Assembly (NCBI GenBank): GCA_017431485.1 | Contig: JAFRKZ010000087.1 | Location: 1 to 57,393, forward strand | Reading direction: 5' to 3' | DNA: 57,393 nucleotides | DNA from: Parasporobacterium sp. | Lineage (GTDB): Bacteria > Bacillota > Clostridia > Lachnospirales > Lachnospiraceae | Shown: positions 1,367 through 45,867 of the stretch, in pieces | Layout: every line of letters starts with the position of its first letter | Numbering within the stretch: the stretch's first letter is position 1 | The notes under the pieces: generated by a model | What the model was told of the DNA's origin: nothing | The model's input: only the letters and a program-made list of their open reading frames with translations | The model's database searches: none | Position numbers and translations under genes: made by a program

Positions 1367-4027
1367 ATGAAGGAATTAGCAAAAACCTACAATCCAAAAG
1401 AGATCGAACAGAGAATCTATGATAACTGGCTGAAGCAGAAGTATTTCCATGCTGCCTGCGATGAGAGCAAAAAGCCGTTTACCATTGTCATGCCGCCTCC
1501 GAATATTACAGGACAGCTCCATATGGGCCATGCCCTGAACAACACGCTGCAGGATATCGTGATCCGGCAGAAGAGGATGCAGGGCTATGATGCCCTGTGG
1601 CAGCCGGGGTGTGACCATGCTTCCATTGCGACAGAGGTCAAGATCATTGAAGCCCTGAAAAAAGAAGGCATTGATAAGCGCGACCTGGGACGGGAGAAAT
1701 TCCTGGAGCGGGCCTGGCAGTGGAAGGAAGAGTATGGCGGCAGGATCGTCAACCAGCTGAAAAAGCTTGGCTCTTCCGCCGACTGGGACAGGGAACGCTT
1801 CACGATGGATGAAGGCCTTTCAGATGCTGTCCTGCAGGTGTTCATCAAAATGTATGAGAAAGGCCTGATCTATAAAGGGACAAAGATCATCAACTGGTGT
1901 CCGAAATGCCTGACTACGGTCTCGGATGCGGAAGTGGAGCATAAGGATACGCCGGGACATTTCTGGCATATCAATTATCCGATCAAGGGCGAAGACCGCT
2001 GCATCGAGATCGCGACCACACGTCCTGAAACTATGCTGGGCGATACGGCGGTGGTGGTGCATCCGGACGATGAGCGGTATCAGGACCTGATCGGAAAGAC
2101 TGCGATCCTGCCGATCGTAAACCGGGAACTGCCGATCATTGCCGATACTTATATCGATCTGGAGGTCGGAACAGGCGCCATGAAGGTGACCCCGGCACAT
2201 GATCCCAATGACTTCGAGCTGGGCAAACGCTACCAGCTGGAAGAGATCTGCGTCTTTACCGACGACGGGCATATCAATGAAAACGGCGGCAAATACGAAG
2301 GCATGACGACCCTGGAATGCCGCAAGGCGATCGTCAAAGAGCTGGATGAGATGGGGCTTTTGGTGAAAGTAAAAGCCTATGAGCACAGCGTGGGCCATCA
2401 TGACCGCTGCGGCTGCATCATCGAACCCATGATCAAACAGCAATGGTTTGTGAAGATGGACGAACTGATCAAGCCGGCGATCAAAGCCGTGGACGAAGGA
2501 GAGATCCGCCTGATCCCTGCCCGTATGAACAAGCTTTACCATAACTGGACGGACAATATCAGGGACTGGTGTATTTCCAGACAGCTGTGGTGGGGACACC
2601 GGATCCCGGCATATTACTGTGAGGGCTGCGGTCATATGACGGTGGCACGGGAGTGCCCCGATGTCTGTCCGGAATGCGGCGGGACTTCCTTCCGGCAGGA
2701 TGAAGACTGCCTGGATACCTGGTTTTCTTCAGCCCTGTGGCCGTTCAGTACTCTGGGCTGGCCGGAGCAGACGCCGGAACTGAAGCATTTCTATCCGACC
2801 AATCTTCTGATCACCGGTTATGATATCATCTTCTTCTGGGTGATCCGGATGATCTTCTCCGGGTATGAGCATATGGGAGAGAAGCCTTTCGACGCCGTGC
2901 TGTTTACCGGTCTTGTCAGGGATGAACAGGGACGGAAGATGAGCAAATCTCTCGGCAACGGCATTGACCCCCTGGAGGTGATCGACAAATACGGCGCCGA
3001 TGCACTCCGGTTTACACTGGTCACCGGAAATTCTCCCGGAAATGACATGCGCTTCTCCTGGGACCGCGTGGAAGCGAACCGGAATTTTGCCAATAAGATC
3101 TGGAACGCATCCAGGTTCATTTTGATGAACCTGCCGGAAGAAGGGGTAAAGACGCCGAAACAAGAGAGCCTGCACGATGCAGATAAATGGATCCTGTCAA
3201 GGGCCAATAAACTGACCCGTGTCGTGACCGAGAACATGGACAAATATGAGATCGGCATGGCAGCAGACAGACTGTATGAATTTATCTGGGATGAGCTGTG
3301 CGACTGGTATATCGAAATGGTGAAGCCGAGACTGTACGGCGAAGACGAAGAAAGCAAGCATGCGGCTTTATATACCCTGCGTACCGTGCTGATGACTTCC
3401 CTGAAACTCCTGCATCCTTATATGCCGTTTGTTACAGAAGCGATCTACGGTTCCCTGCAGCCGCTGGCAGCAGATCTTTATCCGGAAGAGTCCATCATGA
3501 TCTCCGCCTGGCCGGTCTTCGATGAGTCGATGGATTACGAAGAAGCGGAACGAAGGACCCAGATGATCATGGAGGCGGTCAGGGGGATCCGGAATGTCCG
3601 TTCCGGCATGAATGTCCCGCTTTCCCGCAAGTCGAAAGTCTATGTCGTAGCGGAATCCGAAGAGATCCGGGAGATCTTCGAACACGGACGGGTGTTCTTT
3701 GCCACACTGGGAAAAGCCAGTGAAGTAATGATCCAAAAAAATACAGAGGGAATTGAAAAAGATGCCTTGTCAGTTCAGCTGGCTGGTGCTACTATATACA
3801 TTCCTCTGGAGGATCTTGTGGATATCGACAAGGAGATCGAGCGTCTGGAGAAAGAAAAGATCAGGCTGGAGGGCGAGCTGAAGCGTGTCGACGGCATGCT
3901 TTCCAATGAGAGATTCCTTTCCAAGGCTCCTGAAAGCAAGATCCGGGAAGAGCAGGAAAAGAAAGAAAAATATGCAGGCATGATGGCCCAGGTGGAAAGC
4001 CAGCTGGCGTCCCTCAGAAGATCCTGA
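1367..4027 (+). CDS. valS: valine--tRNA ligase
   Basis: 886 aa with the class-I HIGH-type motif PPNITGQLHMGH and KMSKS. It has a ValRS-type editing insertion and a C-terminal coiled coil. AGAGGA RBS upstream. Confidence 0.97.
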   Translation: MKELAKTYNPKEIEQRIYDNWLKQKYFHAACDESKKPFTIVMPPPNITGQLHMGHALNNTLQDIVIRQKRMQGYDALWQPGCDHASIATEVKIIEALKKEGIDKRDLGREKFLERAWQWKEEYGGRIVNQLKKLGSSADWDRERFTMDEGLSDAVLQVFIKMYEKGLIYKGTKIINWCPKCLTTVSDAEVEHKDTPGHFWHINYPIKGEDRCIEIATTRPETMLGDTAVVVHPDDERYQDLIGKTAILPIVNRELPIIADTYIDLEVGTGAMKVTPAHDPNDFELGKRYQLEEICVFTDDGHINENGGKYEGMTTLECRKAIVKELDEMGLLVKVKAYEHSVGHHDRCGCIIEPMIKQQWFVKMDELIKPAIKAVDEGEIRLIPARMNKLYHNWTDNIRDWCISRQLWWGHRIPAYYCEGCGHMTVARECPDVCPECGGTSFRQDEDCLDTWFSSALWPFSTLGWPEQTPELKHFYPTNLLITGYDIIFFWVIRMIFSGYEHMGEKPFDAVLFTGLVRDEQGRKMSKSLGNGIDPLEVIDKYGADALRFTLVTGNSPGNDMRFSWDRVEANRNFANKIWNASRFILMNLPEEGVKTPKQESLHDADKWILSRANKLTRVVTENMDKYEIGMAADRLYEFIWDELCDWYIEMVKPRLYGEDEESKHAALYTLRTVLMTSLKLLHPYMPFVTEAIYGSLQPLAADLYPEESIMISAWPVFDESMDYEEAERRTQMIMEAVRGIRNVRSGMNVPLSRKSKVYVVAESEEIREIFEHGRVFFATLGKASEVMIQKNTEGIEKDALSVQLAGATIYIPLEDLVDIDKEIERLEKEKIRLEGELKRVDGMLSNERFLSKAPESKIREEQEKKEKYAGMMAQVESQLASLRRS

Positions 4028-4088
4028 GCGATGAAACTGCCTGCAGCAGATATGAGAGAAAAGATCAAAAAGAAGATGAGAGGACAAC

Positions 4089-4239: not shown

Positions 4240-5661
4240 ATGAAATGCTATAAATGCGGAAGTTTTTTATATGACGGGGAGTACTGCAATACCTGCGGGG
4301 CTGATGTGACCATATACCGGAAGATCGTATTACGATCCAACGATCTGTATAACAGCGGTCTTCAGTTTGCCCGTGACAGGAACCTGAGCAAGGCGGCAGA
4401 ACACCTGAAAATGAGTCTGAAACTCTACAAGGGAAACATCAACGCCCACAATCTTCTGGGCCTGGTGTATTTCGAGCAGGGAGAATACACGCTGGGATTT
4501 GCCCATTGGATCATCAGCAAGAATATCCAGCCGGACAATAATCTGGCCAATCTGTTCCTGGATCAGATCCAGGAAGATAAAGCCTATGTGGATTCCCTGA
4601 ATGCCAATATCAAGAAATACAACAAAGCCATCAGCTATGTGGAGCAGGAAAGCTATGATCTGGCGGAGATCCAGCTGAAAAAGATCCTGAATGACAACAC
4701 CGCCCATATGGTCAAGGCGTATCAGCTTTCCGCCCTTTTAAGGATCCGCAAGAAGAAATATGCAGCGGCAAGAAAGATCCTGGAACGGGCCCAGAGCATC
4801 GACGCCGGGGATCCGACCACCATCGCTCTGATGACTGCTGTAAACAGCCAGATCCGGGAAGAGGAGAAAGATCTTACCACCGGGGAACTGAAGGTCAAGC
4901 GGCAGCAGGAGACGGCGGAAGAAGATCCGCATCTTCCTCTGTCGGGGGATGATGTGATCATTCCCAAGCCTTCTTATAAGGATTACAATCCGACAACGGT
5001 GGCGATCATCCAGATCCTGATCGGTTTTCTGGTCGGCGCTGCACTGATCTTCTTTGTGGTCGTGCCGGCCAAGACCAATTCGATCCGGAATGAGTCCTCG
5101 GCGCTTCAGATGCAGCTGGAGGAACAGGTTTCCATGCTGTCCGAAGAAAACGCCAAGCTGAGTGCGGATGTGGAACAGCAGTCGAAAGCGGCCGAAGACC
5201 TGCAGACCGCAGCCAATGATGCGTCCGCGGCTGCATCTGCGGCAGTGCAGACTTCCCAGGAAGACGAGACGCTTCTCCTGGAAGCGTACGATCTGTTCCA
5301 GAAGGGCGAGAATGAAGCCTGCGGCAACAAACTGCTGGAGATAAGCCATCCGGAATCTTTTACCGGCGCCAATAAAATGGTGTATGATTCCATCAGCTAT
5401 ACCAAGGATGCCATCCCGGATTACTGGTATAACGATGCGATGGCGCTGTTCGAACAGAATGATTTCGCGGAAGCTCTGGAGATGTTTGCCAAGGTCTATG
5501 AAGCAGCCAATACAACAGGAGAATCCTTATACTATATGGGACTTTGCCATTACAATCTGGATCAGACAGACGAAGCGGCTGCCAGATTCCGGGAATATCT
5601 GGAAACGTTCCCGGAGGGACCGCATGTGACAGAATGTGACTGGCTGCTGTCTCAGATGTAG
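4240..5661 (+). CDS. zinc-ribbon / TPR-repeat membrane protein
   Basis: 473 aa. N-terminal CxxC...CxxC ribbon (CYKCG..CNTCG), TPR-like repeats, one TM helix (VAIIQILIGFLVGAALIFFVVV), a coiled coil and a C-terminal TPR. Confidence 0.7.
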   Translation: MKCYKCGSFLYDGEYCNTCGADVTIYRKIVLRSNDLYNSGLQFARDRNLSKAAEHLKMSLKLYKGNINAHNLLGLVYFEQGEYTLGFAHWIISKNIQPDNNLANLFLDQIQEDKAYVDSLNANIKKYNKAISYVEQESYDLAEIQLKKILNDNTAHMVKAYQLSALLRIRKKKYAAARKILERAQSIDAGDPTTIALMTAVNSQIREEEKDLTTGELKVKRQQETAEEDPHLPLSGDDVIIPKPSYKDYNPTTVAIIQILIGFLVGAALIFFVVVPAKTNSIRNESSALQMQLEEQVSMLSEENAKLSADVEQQSKAAEDLQTAANDASAAASAAVQTSQEDETLLLEAYDLFQKGENEACGNKLLEISHPESFTGANKMVYDSISYTKDAIPDYWYNDAMALFEQNDFAEALEMFAKVYEAANTTGESLYYMGLCHYNLDQTDEAAARFREYLETFPEGPHVTECDWLLSQM

Positions 5662-6486: not shown

Positions 6487-9093
6487 ATGAAACATACTTA
6501 TGAATATCAATACGAAGACGGGTCCGGAAGGATCAGGACCCGCCTGATCAAAGAAAAAAGTGTAGGCGGAAGTGTCCTGAAAGGATTTCTCCTTTTCCTG
6601 CTTTCTGTATTCTGTATCCTCATGAGTATTGTGGCCGGGTCCGCCTTCGGGCTGATCCAGTCGACTCCCCAGATCACTGCGCAGGATGTCAAGCCCAGCG
6701 AGTATCCTTCCCATATCTATGACCGCAACGGCAATGAGATGATCGAGCTGACCACCACCGGATCCAACCGGAAGGAAGCGTCCTATGAAGAGATCCCCGC
6801 CATGCTCAGGGATGCCTTTATCTCCATTGAGGATGAGCGGTTCTATGATCATAACGGCGTTGACCTCAGGGGTATCATCCGTGCTGTTTTCGTAGATATC
6901 GCGGAAGGCAAGAACGAAGGCGCCAGTACGATCACGCAGCAGCTGGTGAAGAACAACGTGATCGAGACCGGCGGCTACGAACGAAGCACCGGATCTTTGC
7001 TTCGAAGAAAAGTCCAGGAATGGGTCATGGCTCTTGATCTGGAAAAGCAGATGAGCAAGAGCGAGATCCTGACCAACTATCTGAATACCATCTATCTCGG
7101 CAGCAACTGCAACGGCGTCAAAGCCGCGGCAGAATACTATTTCGGCAAGAAGGATCTGTACGATCTGACCCTTGCGGAATGTGCTTCCTTAGCTGCCATT
7201 ACCAATAATCCGTCCGCCAATAATCCGGCCAGACATCCGGAAACCAACCGGAAGAGAAGAGATCTGGTCCTGGATTATATGGAGCGGCAGGGCTACATTT
7301 CTCCCGCCCAGTGCGAAGAAGCCAAGCAGGACAATATCTACAGCAGGATCGTGGCGAACACCTCGGAAGAAGCCAGTATCTACACTTATTTTGAAGATGC
7401 GCTGATCTCGGGTGTGCTGAAAGACCTGCAGTCTGTCGGATATACTTATACGCAGGCATACAATCTGCTGTTTTCCGGCGGCGTCTCTATCTATTCCACG
7501 CAGGATACCGCGATCCAGGCGATCATTGAAGAAGAGATCAACAATCCGGTCCACTATCCCATGGAGACTTCCTATTCCATCAGCTGGGACCTGTCGATCC
7601 AGAAGAGCGACGGCACCATGCGGTATTACTATGCAGGCGATATTGCCAGGTATCACCGTAATGAACTCGGCGATGTGGCATACCGTCTGGATTTTGCTAC
7701 GAAAGAGGAAGCAGATGCGGAAGTGGAAGCTTATAAAGCTGTGATCCTGGAAGAGGGCGACCGTATCACCTATGAAGACATTACCTACACCCTGCAGCCG
7801 CAGATCTCCTTTACGGTCATGGATTACACTAACGGCCAGGTGCTGGCTGCGGTGGGCGGACGCGGTGACAAACAGCAGAGCCTTTCCATGAACCGGGCGA
7901 CAGACGTTCTGCGTCAGCCGGGTTCCACACTGAAGGTTCTGGCAGCTTTCGCGCCTGCCATGGATGGGGCCGGCTATACGCTCGCCACGGTACATGATGA
8001 TTCACCGTTTGATTATGAAGGCAATATCAATCGGGAAGTAAAGAACTGGTGGGGAGATTCTTACCGGGGACTCAGCAATATCCGGGACGGTATCCGGGAT
8101 TCCATGAATATCATTGCAGTCAAGACATTGTATGACATCGGGCCGGCAATGGGAGTGAAATACCTGGAAGACTTCGGGTTCGAACACATCGATCCTGTAG
8201 AAGATGCGACACTTCCCACTGCTCTGGGCGGACTTACCAACGGCGTGACCAACCTGGAGCTGTGCGCTGCCTATTCCGCCATTGCAAACCAGGGAACATA
8301 TATTGAGCCGATCATGTATACGAAGATCGTCGGACGGGACGGAACAGTGCTGCTGGAGGCGGACCAGACCACCAGACAGGTGATCCGGCCTACCGTGGCA
8401 GCTCTGCTGACGGACGCCATGGTAGATGTGGTGGAAGAAGGTACCGGAGAAAAGTGCCGGCTGGCTAATGCACCGCTTGCCGGAAAGACGGGAACCACAT
8501 CCAATGATTATGACCTGTGGTTTGCCGGATATGTCCCTGCCGGACTGTGCGGAACGATCTGGGCAGGCTATGATGAGAATATTACCATTGAGCAGGAAGA
8601 ATTCCACAAGGATATGTATGCCGCGATCATGAACCGGATCGTCAATGAACAGGGCTACTGGGGCGGTCAGTTCCTGTGGCCAGCCGGCATCGTACAGGCC
8701 AGCGTGTGCCATAAATCCGGAAAACTCCCGGAAGACTGGCTCTGCGATTATGACCCCACCGGAAAGAGCACTTATATGGAGTACTTCGAGGAAGGAACGG
8801 TCCCGACGGATTACTGTGATGTGCATCTGTCCGCTTATATCTGTTCCGAAACAGGACTTCTTGCCAATGAATACTGTCCAGGATATTATCAGGTATGTAT
8901 CCTCAGGCCAGATGATATCAAGGGCGGACCTCCGAGGGGCTATACCTACGATTCCAATTTTGCTTATCCCGGCATTTACTGCGATCTGCATAATGCTGCA
9001 ACTGCGGCAGGTGCAGGAGAAACCGAAGAGGAAGAGGGAGAAGAAACGCTGGAAGAAGAATACTATGAAGAAGAGTACTATGAAGAGTACTGA
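6487..9093 (+). CDS. class A penicillin-binding protein (PBP1A family transglycosylase/transpeptidase)
   Basis: GT51 motifs EDERFYDHNGVD and GASTITQQL. Transpeptidase motifs STLK, SMN and KTGT. N-terminal TM anchor. Start placed at ATG 6487 (GGGAGG 6 nt upstream) rather than track start 6439. Confidence 0.9.
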   Translation: MKHTYEYQYEDGSGRIRTRLIKEKSVGGSVLKGFLLFLLSVFCILMSIVAGSAFGLIQSTPQITAQDVKPSEYPSHIYDRNGNEMIELTTTGSNRKEASYEEIPAMLRDAFISIEDERFYDHNGVDLRGIIRAVFVDIAEGKNEGASTITQQLVKNNVIETGGYERSTGSLLRRKVQEWVMALDLEKQMSKSEILTNYLNTIYLGSNCNGVKAAAEYYFGKKDLYDLTLAECASLAAITNNPSANNPARHPETNRKRRDLVLDYMERQGYISPAQCEEAKQDNIYSRIVANTSEEASIYTYFEDALISGVLKDLQSVGYTYTQAYNLLFSGGVSIYSTQDTAIQAIIEEEINNPVHYPMETSYSISWDLSIQKSDGTMRYYYAGDIARYHRNELGDVAYRLDFATKEEADAEVEAYKAVILEEGDRITYEDITYTLQPQISFTVMDYTNGQVLAAVGGRGDKQQSLSMNRATDVLRQPGSTLKVLAAFAPAMDGAGYTLATVHDDSPFDYEGNINREVKNWWGDSYRGLSNIRDGIRDSMNIIAVKTLYDIGPAMGVKYLEDFGFEHIDPVEDATLPTALGGLTNGVTNLELCAAYSAIANQGTYIEPIMYTKIVGRDGTVLLEADQTTRQVIRPTVAALLTDAMVDVVEEGTGEKCRLANAPLAGKTGTTSNDYDLWFAGYVPAGLCGTIWAGYDENITIEQEEFHKDMYAAIMNRIVNEQGYWGGQFLWPAGIVQASVCHKSGKLPEDWLCDYDPTGKSTYMEYFEEGTVPTDYCDVHLSAYICSETGLLANEYCPGYYQVCILRPDDIKGGPPRGYTYDSNFAYPGIYCDLHNAATAAGAGETEEEEGEETLEEEYYEEEYYEEY

Positions 9094-18058: not shown

Positions 18059-18133
18059 CGGGGTGTAGCTCAGTTTGGCTAGAGCGCTTGATTTGGGATC
18101 AAGAGGCCGCAGGTTCAAGTCCTGTCACCCCGA
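18059..18133 (+). tRNA. tRNA-Pro (anticodon TGG)
   Basis: Acceptor CGGGGTG/CACCCCG, anticodon loop TTTGGGA, T-loop GGTTCAAGTCC. Confidence 0.9.
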
Positions 18134-18177
18134 TTCCAGAAAGAGCAGCAGCGGATGACGCAAGCGGTTTTGATCAT

Positions 18178-18248
18178 GCGGGTGTAGTTCAATGGTAGAA
18201 CACCAGCCTTCCAAGCTGGACACGTGGGTTCGATTCCCATCACCCGCT
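18178..18248 (+). tRNA. tRNA-Gly (anticodon TCC)
   Basis: Acceptor GCGGGTG/CACCCGC, anticodon stem CCAGC/GCTGG with loop CTTCCAA, T-loop GGTTCGATTCC. Confidence 0.9.
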
Positions 18249-18282
18249 TTTGATTTGCCAAAACGGCAGATTGGATGCATTA

Positions 18283-18356
<74 letters not shown>

Positions 18357-18394
18357 TTGGGCGGCAGGAAGGTTACAGGCACGCTTGATGATAT

Positions 18395-18470
18395 GGTGGA
18401 TATGGCGCAGTTGGCTAGCGCGCCAGATTGTGGCTCTGGAGGCCAAGGGTTCGAGTCCCTTTATCCACCC
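18395..18470 (+). tRNA. tRNA-His (anticodon GTG)
   Basis: Extra 5' G(-1), anticodon stem CCAGA/TCTGG with loop TTGTGGC, T-loop GGTTCGAGTCC. Confidence 0.88.
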
Positions 18471-18482
18471 TTTCCTTTTTAA

Positions 18483-18554
18483 AGGGCTATCGCCAAGCGG
18501 TAAGGCACAGGACTTTGACTCCTGCATTCGCTGGTTCGAATCCAGCTAGCCCTG
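18483..18554 (+). tRNA. tRNA-Gln (anticodon TTG)
   Basis: Acceptor AGGGCTA/TAGCCCT, anticodon stem CAGGA/TCCTG with loop CTTTGAC. Confidence 0.88.
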
Positions 18555-18561
18555 TTTGAAT

Positions 18562-18634
18562 GGGCCATTAGCTCAGGTGGTAGAGCACTTGACTTTTAAT
18601 CAAGTTGTCCGGGGTTCGAGTCCCCGATGGCTCA
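18562..18634 (+). tRNA. tRNA-Lys (anticodon TTT)
   Basis: Acceptor GGGCCAT/ATGGCTC, anticodon stem CTTGA/TCAAG with loop CTTTTAA. Confidence 0.9.
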
Positions 18635-18642
18635 CGAAAAAG

Positions 18643-18675
18643 CGGGATCTCAGTTGATGAGGTCCCGTTTTTTTG
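18643..18675 (+). terminator. rho-independent terminator of the tRNA operon
   Basis: CGGGATC-loop-GGTCCCG followed by TTTTTTTG. Confidence 0.75.
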
Positions 18676-18699
18676 TTGCCCGTTTGTTCCGATGAGGCA

Positions 18700-19143
18700 A
18701 AGGCTTCTTGTTTTTTTCAGTTGGCGATTTTGAGAATAGTCGGGTATCCCTGATTTCGCCTGATGCTGATTTTGAGAATAGTGGGGTATCCTCATTTTCA
18801 CCAGATACTTTTTTTGAGAATAGTGGACTATCCTTATTTTCACCAGATGTTGATTTTGAGAATAGTCAAGTATACTTAATATCGACGGATGTTGATTTTA
18901 AGAATAGTCGATTATTCTTGTTTTAACTAAATGTCGATTTTGAGAATAGTTGGGTATCCCTGTTTCATCTAAATATCGGTTTTGAGAATAGTGGACCATA
19001 CTCATTTTCACCAGATACTTTTTTTGAGAATAGTGGACCATCCTTATTATTACCAGATGTTGATTTTGAGAATAGTCAAGTATAATATCGGCTGATGCTT
19101 TTTTTGAGAATGGTCTGGTATCCTCAAAGCAACGGTGACAGGA
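18700..19143. repeat. tandem array A: 10 units of a 42-nt hairpin repeat, core TTTTGAGAATAGT
   Basis: The core starts at 18728, 18770, 18812, 18854, 18896, 18938, 18980, 19022 and 19064, each exactly 42 nt apart, then at 19102. Units 2-4 resemble units 7-9, giving a 210-nt super-repeat. Confidence 0.9.
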
Positions 19144-19168
19144 TAACACCGGATAACACACTTTTTTG

Positions 19169-19197
19169 TTGAATTTGCCTGCGTTTAATTGTATCAT
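19169..19197 (+). promoter_or_regulatory. promoter TTGAAT-17-TATCAT for rnpB
   Basis: Hexamers at 19169-19174 and 19192-19197. The P1 helix of RNase P RNA starts about 8 nt downstream. Confidence 0.55.
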
Positions 19198-19204
19198 ATA
19201 AATT

Positions 19205-19550
19205 CGAGCAGGCTGAATGGTCGCGCTGTGCGTGTGCTTGCATGCGCAGGTGAGGAAAGTCCGGGCTTCACAGGGCAGGATGCCAGATAACGTCTGGCGG
19301 GAGCGATCCCAGGACAAGTGCAACAGAAAGGATACCGCCCGCAAGGGTAAGGGTGAAATGGCAGTGTAAGAGACTACCGGTCCGACGGCAACGCCGGATG
19401 CAATGTAAACTCCATCCGAAGCAAGACCAAACAGATGGCGCTGAGGCGGCCCGCTTAGCCATCGGGTAGGTTGCGAAGAGACGGCTGGCGACAGCCGGAC
19501 AAGATAGATGACCATTTTCAATGACAGAACCCGGCTTACAGGCCTGCTCG
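19205..19550 (+). ncRNA. rnpB: RNase P RNA, bacterial type A
   Basis: P1 pairing CGAGCAGGC/GCCTGCTCG. Universal blocks GAGGAAAGTCCGGGC and ACAGAACCCGGCTTA. Type-A-like CAGGGCAGGATGCCAGATAACGTCTGG, GTGCAACAGAAAG and GGTAAGGGTGAAA. Confidence 0.93.
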
Positions 19551-19638
19551 CCTTTTCTGATCCTATCAGGAGCTTGATAAGAAGCATCGAAAGAACCGAA
19601 AGCCAGAATAAAGGGCGGCTGACACGGAGGATGTACCC

Positions 19639-19878
19639 ATGGAACATAACGAAGCAGAAGTATGGTATGAAAAGTTTCTGGATTCCAGACTGATCAGGGA
19701 AAAACGGGAGATCCTTCAGAGGATCTACCGGGAAGGGATCCTTACCGACAAGATGATCGATGATTTTGCGGTGACCCTGGATATCGTGATCCCTCAGGCA
19801 GATCTGGAGAATCGGTATTATGATCTGTTGCGGTGCCTGGATTCCCTGGCGAAATTTGAGACCACAGGCCTTCGGTAA
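19639..19878 (+). CDS. small hypothetical protein (79 aa)
   Basis: GGAGG 8 nt upstream of the ATG and a helical, charged sequence. No family recognised. Confidence 0.5.
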   Translation: MEHNEAEVWYEKFLDSRLIREKREILQRIYREGILTDKMIDDFAVTLDIVIPQADLENRYYDLLRCLDSLAKFETTGLR

Positions 19879-43691: not shown

Positions 43692-44267
43692 ATGAAAAAA
43701 ATGATTTGTTTACTGATCGCAGCGGTCCTGGCAGCAGGAATGCTGACTGCCTGCGATTCAGGAGATAGCAGCGCTAAAAAAGATGACCAGGCGACTACTG
43801 TCGCTGCTGCAGCTGCAGACACGACACCGGCGGCTGATGAGACTGCACAGGCCCAGGATGCACAGACGGATCGATTTACCTTTACGTATAAAGGTACTCC
43901 GATCACCATGAAGGCTGAAGCAGCTCCGATCTGCGAAGCTCTGGGTGACGCAAAGAGCTATACAGAGGAAACAAGCTGCGCATTTGACGGCCTGGATAAG
44001 AATTACACCTTTACCAGCTTTATCATGACGACCTATCCGGATGGCGACAAGGACAGAGTCAATTCCCTGACGCTCCTGGATGATACCGTTTCTACTGCGG
44101 ACAAGATCAGTATCGGAGACTCCAAGGAAAAAGTGGAAGAAGTCTACGGAGCCGACAGTTTTAACGGTGTCAACGCCTATATCCTGACGGAAGGAGATGC
44201 ACAGCTTACCGTGATCATCGACGGCGACAAAGTATCTTCCATCCAGTATACGGCAGTGTTTGAGTAA
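43692..44267 (+). CDS. lipoprotein, function unknown
   Basis: Signal peptide with lipobox LTAC, then an Ala/Thr/Asp-rich linker and a ~130-aa domain. GGAGAG RBS. Confidence 0.7.
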   Translation: MKKMICLLIAAVLAAGMLTACDSGDSSAKKDDQATTVAAAAADTTPAADETAQAQDAQTDRFTFTYKGTPITMKAEAAPICEALGDAKSYTEETSCAFDGLDKNYTFTSFIMTTYPDGDKDRVNSLTLLDDTVSTADKISIGDSKEKVEEVYGADSFNGVNAYILTEGDAQLTVIIDGDKVSSIQYTAVFE

Positions 44268-44293
44268 ACACATTTTTCAATTACGACAAGAAG

Positions 44294-44323
44294 GCCAGCA
44301 TGCAGATGTCATGCTGGCTTTTT
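44294..44323 (+). terminator. rho-independent terminator of the envelope operon
   Basis: GCCAGCATG-loop-CATGCTGGC followed by TTTTT. Confidence 0.85.
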
Positions 44324-44603
44324 CCTTGTTTTCGCAGTGTGCTCAATTTGAGGAGGGTAGACCCTCCTTGTTTTCACGGTGAGTCTAATATGAGGAGGGT
44401 TTACCCTTCTTGTTTTCGCGGTGCGCTCAATTTGAGGAGGGTAGACCCTTCTTGTTTTTGCGGTGTGTTTAATTTGAGAAGGGTGGCCCCTTCTTGTTTT
44501 TACGATGTCCCCGATTTGAGAAGGGTGTCCCCGACTTGTTTTTGCGATGTCCCCATTTTGAGGAGGGTAGACCCTTCTTGTTTTCAAGATGAGATTAATT
44601 TAA
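44318..44603. repeat. tandem array B: 7 units of a 42-nt hairpin repeat, core TTTGAGGAGGGT..ACCCTTCTTGTTTT
   Basis: Unit starts at 44347, 44389, 44431, 44473, 44515, 44557 and 44599, all exactly 42 nt apart. Each unit is an AGGAGGGT/ACCCTCCT-type hairpin plus a T run. Confidence 0.9.
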
Positions 44604-44604
44604 G

Positions 44605-44637
44605 AAGGGTATAGGCTCGGAAAGAGCCTATACCCTT
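44605..44637 (-). terminator. 14-bp hairpin terminator of the ABC-F/PHP/hydrolase operon (also the last repeat unit)
   Basis: AAGGGTATAGGCTC-ggaaa-GAGCCTATACCCTT, 7 nt downstream of the hydrolase stop. Confidence 0.7.
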
Positions 44638-44643
44638 ATGGTT

Positions 44644-45867
44644 TTATAGTCCATCTGTGATATTTGGATCGATCTTAAATCCATCGAAATCATCGAGAGG
44701 ATGAAATTCTTCCTCCGGCGGGGTTTTCTGTGAAGCAGGGGTTGATCCTTCAGAGTCAGAAGAAGCTGAACTTTCTTCGGAACCGGCCCCGGAGATCACT
44801 GCTTCGATGTCGGCAAAGTCGATCATCTCCACCTTCGGATGGGCATCCTTGTCGATATATTCTTCCAGGTTCAGTTTTTCATCCCGGACCATTGGTCTGT
44901 CGATCTCCGGATCCACAAAATCCTCCAGGACAATGTGTTTCGGAGTGGCGGCGGCTTTTTCCGGAACGTCCGGGATCGCTGCCAGGCAGGATTCAACCTG
45001 TTCAAGGAGATCCTGCCAGATCTTTTCCCTGCAGAAATCCTGAAACAGTTCATGGCGCTGTCCCGGATAAATGATGTATCCCACATCTGTATATCCATTA
45101 TCAGAAAAGAGGTGGACTGTCTTCAGAACACCGTTTTTGCCTGCAGCACAGGAATCTTCTTCTCCCCAGAACAGACGGATGGGAAGCCCAGTGTGTTTTT
45201 TGATCCAGCTTCCTTTTGTATAGGTGCGGTTCATGAGATCCAGGATGGTCTTGAAACCGTTTATGGTATAGATATATCCGCATTTCGGGTTGATCTCATA
45301 TTTCAGGACACTGTCCCGGTCAGAAGACAGCCAGGCGAATTCGGATCCTTCCCTGGCAAATGGCCTGTAGTAAGATCCCATGATCAGATAATTGAGCAGG
45401 GAAGAACGATGATATTCCCCGCGCATAGCCATCAGCACCATCGTCAGCAGGTCAGCAGCAGGACGAAGCGGTTTGTCCGCCGGCATGCCGCAGAGAAACA
45501 GTCCGTCAATATAGTTGTCGTATTTTTTGATATAGACCGTGGCAAGAAGCGCTCCGATCCCATGTCCGAACAAAAAGCAGGGAATATGGGGAAAATGATC
45601 TTTGATATATTGCGTGATATCGTGAACGTCGCCAACCAGTCTGGAAACAGCGTTATCCCCGAAAAAACCAAGTTCTGTTTCCCGGGCAGTATTGATCCCG
45701 TGGCCTCTCAGGTCGCTGGTAACGACTGCGAAACCATGTTCCGCAAGGAAATGAGCAAATTCACGGTATCTTCCCTGATATTCGGCCATCCCGTGAAGGA
45801 TATGAAAGACTGCCCTGACTTCGCCGTCAGGCATATAAATGATCGCGTTTTTCGTTAATTCAGACAT
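44644..45867 (-). CDS. alpha/beta-hydrolase-fold protein (lysophospholipase/MGL-like) with Gly at the nucleophile position and an acidic C-terminal extension
   Basis: HGMAEYQGRY..SDLRGHG entry motifs of the Hydrolase_4 type. The elbow reads GHGIG instead of GHSxG. About 120 aa of acidic tail. Confidence 0.75.
   Translation of the reverse strand: MSELTKNAIIYMPDGEVRAVFHILHGMAEYQGRYREFAHFLAEHGFAVVTSDLRGHGINTARETELGFFGDNAVSRLVGDVHDITQYIKDHFPHIPCFLFGHGIGALLATVYIKKYDNYIDGLFLCGMPADKPLRPAADLLTMVLMAMRGEYHRSSLLNYLIMGSYYRPFAREGSEFAWLSSDRDSVLKYEINPKCGYIYTINGFKTILDLMNRTYTKGSWIKKHTGLPIRLFWGEEDSCAAGKNGVLKTVHLFSDNGYTDVGYIIYPGQRHELFQDFCREKIWQDLLEQVESCLAAIPDVPEKAAATPKHIVLEDFVDPEIDRPMVRDEKLNLEEYIDKDAHPKVEMIDFADIEAVISGAGSEESSASSDSEGSTPASQKTPPEEEFHPLDDFDGFKIDPNITDGL

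Follow-up and report, generated by a model that had tools for sequence, protein, structure and literature searches.

Array A of a Parasporobacterium-like Lachnospiraceae species is probably one locus of a dispersed family of terminator-like minisatellites

Array A and its anatomy

The window, i.e., the whole stretch of 57,393 nt analysed here (contig JAFRKZ010000087.1 of assembly GCA_017431485.1), belongs to a Parasporobacterium-like Lachnospiraceae species of animal guts. Between a tRNA operon and the RNase P RNA gene rnpB it contains a tandem array of ten 42-nt units, each with a potential hairpin, which we call array A. We consider it probable (roughly 0.6) that array A belongs, as one locus among several, to a dispersed minisatellite family of terminator-like modules that is specific to this lineage; a second locus, array B, lies in the same window.

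The operon, which carries tRNAs for Pro, Gly, Arg, His, Gln and Lys (18059-18635), is followed on the plus strand by its intrinsic terminator at 18636..18674, a 17-bp stem between an A-run and a U-run (-24.6 kcal/mol, z = -6.75). The rnpB gene (class A RNase P RNA; 19205..19554, plus strand; Rfam RF00010, 296 bits) is preceded on the same strand by a promoter-like site at 19169..19197 (TTGAAT, 17 nt, TATCAT), and the 570-nt gap between operon and gene houses the array. Its ten A-type units occupy 18725..19140 on the plus strand, all of 42 nt except unit 9, which has 38 nt. In each, the core TTTTGAGAATAGT is followed by a variable loop, a right arm that has decayed, a T-run and finally a spacer. 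Ahead of them lies a degenerate unit 0 of the B type described below (~18690..18724, plus strand; TGAGGCAAAGGCTTCTTGTTTTTTT + spacer), which is in register with the array (repeat copy 18711-18752), has a fold of -6.3 kcal/mol and is flagged as terminator-like at 18694-18707.

An earlier interpretation made from the letters of the window alone, hereafter the sequence-only reading, had described ten 42-nt units with a single 38-nt step. This anatomy is confirmed by Tandem Repeats Finder (TRF; 18726-19083, period 42, 8.5 copies, 74% matches) and by the repeat listing, which gives ten in-register copies with eight steps of 42 nt and a last one of 38 nt. The core does recur at all ten positions that had been named, but it is exact in eight only, the copies at 18896 (TTTTAAGAATAGT) and 19102 (TTTTGAGAATGGT) having one mismatch each. 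TTTGAG is found at 18729, 18771, 18813, 18855, 18939, 18981, 19023, 19065 and 19103, and three copies of TTTGAG at 42-nt spacing were matched six times, against 0.00 expected from shuffles of the window. The duplication of a 5-unit (210-nt) block also holds, given that the second copy (18915..19084, plus strand) is 85% identical to the first (18705-18874) at offset 210 and that a conspecific contig, L124, has five units fewer. As for the borders, the B-type unit said to begin the array is real, yet the array opens one degenerate unit earlier, at ~18690, than the half-unit that had been proposed. Its end at 19140 lies 28 nt before the -35-like hexamer of rnpB (19169), close to the 25 nt or so that had been estimated. 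Spurious open reading frames (ORFs) run through the array as had been stated, and their frame is broken by the 38-nt unit, as well as by a 41-nt unit in a further array of the family (L150).

The hairpins of the individual A-type units are weak, ranging from -1.8 to -8.1 kcal/mol, and a terminator consensus scan flagged none of the ten (0/10).

Array B and the two unit types

Array B follows an ORF at 43692-44267 (plus strand; 191 aa, no Pfam match), whose neighbours form a dlt-like or MBOAT cluster, and the primary intrinsic terminator of that ORF at 44289..44323 (plus strand, -21.9 kcal/mol). A leading half unit and six B-type 42-nt units occupy 44325..44594 on the plus strand (TRF period 42, 6.4 copies). 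The last unit (44595..44650, plus strand) carries an extra inner palindrome within its arms, which yields a 14-bp hairpin of -26.0 kcal/mol, and is flagged as terminator-like. The whole array (44325-44650) lies between convergent genes, the downstream one being a convergent alpha/beta hydrolase gene. Its unit reads TTTGAG-GAGGGT-NNNA-CCCTTCTT-GTTTT + spacer, with hairpins of -5.9 to -13.6 kcal/mol, and some units are flagged as terminator-like, on the plus strand only.

When the consensus units of A and B are placed directly side by side, 26/42 positions agree in register. Both share a layout of TTTGAG, left arm, 4-nt loop, right arm, TTGTTTT or TTATTTT, and about 12 variable nucleotides, and their differences are mainly paired changes in the stem (AATAG/CTATC in A, GAGGG/CCCTC in B). 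B-type units carry GGAGG, which resembles a Shine-Dalgarno sequence.

A dispersed repeat family

A pattern scan of Joint Genome Institute (JGI) metagenomes for two consecutive units, in which only TTTGAG, GT and TTTT were specified, returned ten loci, eight of them from a single assembly, 'R26'. Two of these eight are orthologous to arrays A and B, and since they match the window at 98.5-99.0% identity in their flanks, R26 represents the same species. The remaining six are further arrays, with 3, 11, 8, 8, 6 and 8 units, all of period 42. The repeat is thus met at multiple unlinked intergenic loci, two in the window and six more in the conspecific assembly, and the tie to the tRNA operon and rnpB that the sequence-only reading had implied does not hold, as array A belongs to a dispersed family.

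In the register common to the family, the unit consists of TTTTGAG, an 8-bp hairpin, TTGTTTT and a variable spacer of ~12 nt, the conserved module being written as TTTTGAGGAGGGT + hairpin. Every array opens with a right arm and T-run and closes with a left arm. Given that array L150 grades from B-type left arms to A-type units, and that unit 0 of array A is B-type, the A-type is a derivative of the commoner B-type.

Alignment A1 comprises 59 units, across which T5, T7, A9, G10 and A12 are invariant, and T6, G15, T16, T23, C25, T27, T30 and T31 are at least 90% conserved. In the hairpin columns (8-15/20-27), 89.6% of cells are paired, against 82.2% in shuffles and 53-76% with slid partners. The covariation across units that had been suggested as a check is present at pairs 13-22 (GC 38, UA 18), 14-21 (GC 33, AU 15, GU 6) and 11-24, but it mostly reflects a single split between A and B types, and the hybrid units of L150 pair poorly. 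To judge from these alignments, the covariation is supportive of the hairpin, not decisive.

Hairpin energies were compared over 63 collected units. On the repeat strand, the mean is -10.3 kcal/mol for B-type and -3.4 for A-type hairpins; on the complement, it is -8.2 and -4.0, respectively. The repeat strand is the more stable one in 43 units and the complement in 18 (Wilcoxon p = 0.001), G.U pairs favouring the repeat strand, and the strongest units reach -13.6 to -16 kcal/mol. Measured against what is expected of intrinsic terminators, B-type units are modest, with stems of 8-9 bp, -10 to -16 kcal/mol and a TTGTTTT tail; the terminator consensus scan flags them on the repeat strand only. 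Within array A, the 13-nt core has 2/117 mismatches and the right arm 14/72 (Fisher p = 3e-5).

Units of one array share an identity of 0.84 in the module and 0.60 in the spacer; for units of different arrays, the values are 0.73 and 0.42. This higher identity within arrays is the signature of local amplification and homogenisation. A covariance model built from the family unit, R1, matches every unit of the focal species. In array A, nine matches have E = 2.8e-13 to 4.8e-9, the last unit (19099) has 0.009 and the 38-nt unit 0.78; in array B, values range from E = 1.8e-14 to 1.3e-10. R1 found no unit in ~100 kb of sister-species loci, and on ~0.9 Mb of unrelated loci it gave one chance-level match (19.3 bits, E = 0.03, in an Alistipes contig).

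Strain variation and distribution

Strains were compared at array A using contigs whose ThrC is identical to that of the window and whose flanks have 99.7-99.9% nucleotide identity. The array has ten units in L122 and L123 and exactly five in L124, where a unit-3/unit-8 hybrid junction marks a 210-nt block gained or lost. In L121 and L126 it is rearranged, both contigs carrying a 75-nt remnant of the end of an insertion sequence (IS), and in L121 an rve-family IS sits in the array at the T-run of a unit. That IS (239-1689) encodes helix-turn-helix and rve transposase proteins, and GTTT appears to have been duplicated at its insertion; two units beyond, its left end recurs as a solo copy of 75 nt (L121 ~1903-1980; L126 ~7-90). 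Searching relatives, as the sequence-only reading had proposed, yielded a dispersed family whose unit number varies among strains (10, 5, or IS-disrupted).

Array B is identical in five near-clonal contigs. It has seven units in the window and eight in the R26 strain, whose flanks are 98.5% identical, and the interior units differ. In L137, a near-identical contig of the hydrolase locus from the same sample as the IS strain, array B is intact.

The closest named relatives by ThrC are metagenome-assembled genomes (MAGs) of Parasporobacterium sp., at 83% identity. Upstream of rnpB, relatives at 83% and 79% ThrC identity have neither the array nor the tRNA operon, while the rnpB-orf79-thrC synteny is kept. 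In relatives, the 3' spacer of the hydrolase gene is 124-134 nt long and holds no units, and the hpf-secA spacer of relatives at 89% and 82% HPF identity holds a terminator and promoter, or a small gene, and no units. Contigs with ThrC homologues at 94% and 85% identity break inside rnpB and are silent on the array. Conspecific contigs from public short-read assemblies (L123-L127, L134, L135) likewise end, as a rule, in or next to array A or within rnpB, so that in practice the repeats cause contigs to break.

Further afield, the JGI scan found conspecific arrays in one assembly only, a BLAST search of plasmids and phages with array B found nothing similar, and a scan of viral contigs gave seven matches, all unrelated. 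A scan of reference genomes with TTTGAG-N36-TTTGAG-N36-TTTGAG returned, among the matches listed, mostly unrelated repeats of period 7, 14, 21 and 42, including Nostoc heptamers and coiled-coil genes.

Several look-alikes were met on the way. Contig L036 (Faecalicatena absiana JAEDAG010000006.1), also of the Lachnospiraceae, has two adjacent 42-nt arrays in opposite orientation (5 and 5-6 units; minus strand, ~6688-7190), which are noncoding and have stable-RNA neighbours, adjoining a terminator hairpin and apparent 5S rRNA and tRNA genes; it was rejected as a family member, the likeness being superficial and R1 giving no match. Short 42-nt arrays of TTTGAG, hairpin and variable stretch occur in the unrelated genomes L002 (a Tetragenococcus MAG, ~4392-4560, minus strand), L027 (Prevotella) and L145 (IMG/VR, ~3884-4050, minus strand), and surfaced only since the search required TTTGAG at 42-nt spacing. 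A sister Parasporobacterium sp. MAG has an unrelated intergenic repeat of its own, ...CGCAATGCTGCATTTTTTCGGC... (L128 3407-3497; L158 11620-11760), with period 31 at one locus and one occurrence at the site orthologous to array B. On this comparison, related species seem each to have a different private repeat family.

Genomic context of the arrays

Arrays in tandem-gene contexts are all oriented like the upstream gene (4/4; few contexts, p ~0.06). The upstream partners are the tRNA operon before rnpB, hpf before secA, a carrier-protein gene before its neighbour, and a 1206-aa gene that precedes a small ORF with, by eye, the look of a GntR-type regulator. Counting every locus where the end of an upstream gene faces the array, seven of seven are co-oriented, of which the four tandem ones are informative. 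Three arrays lie between convergent genes, and one, L155, lies between two divergent promoter-like sites, outside any obvious transcript.

Five arrays begin ~0-30 nt from the T-run of a canonical terminator, and two begin shortly past a stop codon (L148 and L152), with no separate terminator. At the other end, arrays often stop 26-90 nt upstream of promoters, namely those of rnpB and secA and both promoters at L155.

Between array A and the rnpB promoter, TRF reports a direct repeat, GGATAACACC x1.9, at 19141..19159 (plus strand), which is outside the 42-nt family. It is a perfect 10-nt repeat, GGATAACACC-GGATAACAC, with the conspecific variants GGATAACACCGGATGACGCAC (L121, L126) and GATAACACCATAGGACGCAC (R26 strain), and might serve as an upstream element of the promoter or as a site for some factor. 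Beyond rnpB, a 79-aa ORF (19639-19878, plus strand) with a good Shine-Dalgarno sequence and no Pfam family lies between rnpB and thrC; its position is kept in all relatives down to 79% ThrC identity, mostly with 78-81 aa.

Transcription evidence

The RNA data are assembled contigs from four bovine rumen metatranscriptomes, i.e., from complex communities. RNA contigs cover the 3' half of ORF 43692-44267 and end at 44249-44295, at the foot of its own terminator; array B and the convergent hydrolase gene have none. Around array A, depth is 0 throughout 18638-19222; in the same runs, tRNA-Lys is abundant and the species-specific stretches of rnpB reach a word depth of ~10-640 in most bins. One run, X23, gave low-depth contigs over part of the array, near the depth of neighbouring coding sequences and ~3x below that of rnpB; these were judged to be DNA carry-over and were left unused. 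Given that flanking genes are seen in these metatranscriptomes and neither array is, it is unlikely that either array gives rise to an abundant structured RNA. Neither array has a match at gathering score in Rfam 15 (at E <= 10, there are only chance-level eukaryotic snoRNA and miRNA matches), and no promoter-like site precedes the arrays.

A minisatellite family of terminator-like modules

In the reading that we favour, the ancestral unit would have been terminator-like, with TTTTGAG at its 5' end, then a stem of 8 bp around a 4-nt loop, TTGTTTT and a freely evolving spacer of ~12 nt. It is carried in intergenic arrays of 3-11 head-to-tail units, most of which begin right after the terminator or stop codon of a gene and in the same orientation. 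Unequal recombination or slippage between units would lengthen, shorten and homogenise these arrays locally, hence the duplication and loss of the 210-nt block and the rapid turnover among strains. Such arrays would be tolerated between genes, especially past gene ends, and they tolerate IS insertion. Array A is a derived A-type copy that has kept its left arm and 5' T-run and whose right arm has drifted, which accounts for its marginal hairpins.

Placed behind a strong terminator and before the rnpB promoter, array A probably does little there; it would be at most a weak back-up terminator, or a spacer, against read-through into rnpB, and does not appear to be a dedicated device tied to stable-RNA genes. 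Any termination is probably incidental and weak, since strong terminators precede both A and B, sister species do without the arrays, the unit number is unconstrained, and one array lies where there is nothing to terminate. The sequence-only reading had itself held that absence from close relatives together with a lack of transcript signal would point to neutral expansion. Largely this is what was found, yet the conservation of the core is unlike pure neutrality.

This last observation leads to the points that weigh against our reading. The core of array A has 2/117 mismatches and the rest of the unit 74/261 (Fisher p = 2e-11), so that, taken together with the rate in the right arm, the unit has evolved non-uniformly. 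As far as the alignments tell, the 5' TTTTGAG and the left arm are conserved beyond what a terminator would need, which pure neutrality would not predict, and there is a sequence-specific constraint on the module, imposed by a host factor or by the spreading mechanism. Near-identical modules at eight or more loci imply such a mechanism; in the 5' and 3' flanks of ten arrays, no common terminal module, target duplication or cognate gene for spread was found. The tandem contexts behind the co-orientation are few, depth 0 in assembled contigs is no proof of absent RNA, and the absence from other taxa is sampled, not exhaustive, the pattern used on reference genomes being too generic.

Alternative explanations

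The sequence-only reading had offered stacked weak terminators, a phased protein-binding array and a modular noncoding RNA. An insulator selected by the host, in which stacked weak terminators would guard against read-through from the tRNA operon into rnpB or between convergent genes, is in our judgement unlikely. The part of this idea that stands is at family level: a hairpin with a U-run is present on the unit strand, which is also the one that G.U pairs favour, all four informative contexts are co-directional, no RNA is seen past the first terminator, and L148 and L152 follow a stop codon directly, so that it is for such B-type arrays that the idea is strongest. It fares poorly at array A, whose hairpins average -3.4 kcal/mol behind a terminator of -24.6 kcal/mol; array B similarly follows one of -21.9 kcal/mol, and little RNA polymerase should arrive at either. 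Near-identical strains differ twofold in unit number, and one has an IS inside the array; three orthologous sites in sister species lack arrays, and L155 lies between divergent promoters. The conservation of the module invites a different explanation, namely a sequence-specific protein that would contact one face of the helix every four turns, be it a nucleoid or regulatory protein or an enzyme that copies or mobilises the units. RAYT acting on REP and SopB on sopC are models for such a repeat-binding protein. The core does not vary, whereas the arm that it pairs with has drifted, some positions are invariant family-wide, the 42-bp period is strict across arrays, arrays often lie 26-90 nt upstream of promoters, and identical modules at many loci require a mechanism of spreading. 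The 10.5-bp harmonic of A/T tracts, which falls in the top 3.8% (array A) and 0.5% (array B) of the window background, also speaks for it, but is weaker than the 14-, 21- and 42-bp harmonics, and its modest rise is entailed by the 42-bp period. Moreover, no candidate protein gene lies beside any array, some arrays lie between convergent genes, away from any promoter, and copy number is unconstrained. On the whole, this explanation is improbable. A broader form of it, in which a dedicated factor reads the TTTTGAG-hairpin module, is doubtful as well; such a factor could be an enzyme that seeds arrays at terminator T-tracts, or a phased DNA-binding insulator or tuner of promoters such as that of rnpB. 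Partial likenesses of the core to a DnaA box, CodY box, TRAP site or CsrA site, judged by eye only, are not common to B-type units and were set aside.

A modular noncoding RNA or RNA sponge, whose hairpins or GGAGG would bind a protein or the ribosome, possibly in a version resembling a type III antitoxin, is very unlikely. Repeated hairpins and the GGAGG of B-type units would suit it, and the whole of array A folds below shuffles (z = -4.1 on the plus strand and -5.0 on the minus strand). However, low fold energy is expected of any imperfect-palindrome repeat; it is seen here on both strands, comes mostly from pairing between units and is no guide to function. The idea is opposed by the missing Rfam match and promoter-like site, by the strong terminators upstream and by the four metatranscriptomes, in which the flanking genes are represented but neither array has a single RNA contig. 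The neighbours, rnpB and a hydrolase gene, include no ToxN-like or other partner gene downstream, and a type III toxin-antitoxin system (ToxI-like repeats of ~35-45 nt upstream of ToxN) was rejected on that ground and for want of RNA. Still less credence, next to none, can be given to a protein-coding repeat of 14 residues or a degenerate CRISPR-like array. Although a 42-nt unit spans 14 codons, both arrays are traversed by ORFs, and a conserved module alternates with a variable stretch, the 38-nt unit of array A and the 41-nt unit of L150 break the frame, there is no codon periodicity, and the ORF through array B starts inside a terminator hairpin. As for CRISPR, the spacers are ~12 nt long and homologous within an array (0.60 identity), and the neighbours are housekeeping genes, with no cas genes nearby.

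If the minisatellite reading is true, breaks in metagenome assemblies of this species would be explained, many contigs ending in or next to arrays, and the loci would offer ready variable-number tandem repeat markers for typing a rumen or gut Lachnospiraceae. The conserved 5' half suggests that some factor or mechanism may read or spread cassettes of this terminator-like kind, and could lift the family above junk. Were a dedicated factor to exist, the family would be an active system, not inert minisatellite DNA, and in the enzyme version it would represent a new mobilisation route for tandem terminator-like cassettes.

Comparison with known systems

Searches of the literature on 42-nt repeats and on clostridial terminator minisatellites found nothing relevant. 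The comparison below is with element families of other bacteria. In plasmid F, sopC consists of twelve tandem 43-bp repeats beside sopAB, each with an inverted repeat bound by SopB. The likeness lies in strictly phased tandem units of ~42-43 bp with a short inverted repeat in each. However, sopC is a single plasmid locus, whereas the present arrays occupy many chromosomal loci, without partition genes and with diverging units.

Some REP elements are targeted by IS elements. The REP and BIME sequences of enterobacteria are extragenic palindromes clustered between genes, and some act as attenuators (PMC3049150). Palindromic units clustered between genes are found here as well, but BIMEs alternate the orientation of their REPs and depend on a conserved tetranucleotide read by RAYT transposases, whereas here all repeats are direct. 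No inverted repeats are reported in array A, and no RAYT gene was seen at the loci examined.

MIRUs of the Mycobacterium tuberculosis complex are tandem units of 40-100 bp that occupy many intergenic loci, mutate in copy number at a high rate and are useful in strain typing (PMC3635867). Both they and the present repeats are tandem-unit families at many intergenic loci with variable copy number. MIRUs are, however, thought to be transcribed within operons, are not of the hairpin-plus-U-tract kind, and belong to another phylum, with no homology. The boxB module is ~45 nt long. In the BOX elements of streptococci, boxB occurs as tandem modules in strain-variable number, more so in longer arrays, and the elements are intergenic and self-folding (PMC3049150). 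Tandem intergenic modules that each fold alone and vary in number among strains are thus common to both, although BOX has terminal boxA and boxC modules with inverted-repeat ends, whereas nothing of the kind is common to the array flanks here.

The SPRITE of the pneumococcus is dispersed and species-restricted, has a stem and U-rich tract, is enriched just downstream of coding sequences and has possibly been co-opted as a terminator (PMC3049150). The unit described here resembles it in being a dispersed, species-restricted, intergenic stem and U-tract near gene ends. The likeness is one of structure, a relationship in sequence not being expected, and SPRITE inserts as a single copy and has a stem of 18 bp, whereas the present unit has an 8-bp stem and occurs only in head-to-tail arrays of 3-11. 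The arrays thus form a new family, although the kind of element is a known one. SPRITE, the boxB modules of BOX and MIRU are its three nearest analogues in function and structure, yet it belongs to none of them, since boxA and boxC ends are missing, the units are found in arrays only, and the lineage is another. If our reading is true, the family adds a Clostridia example to the few terminator-like dispersed repeats known, in which a SPRITE-type unit is combined with tandem amplification of the boxB or MIRU type.

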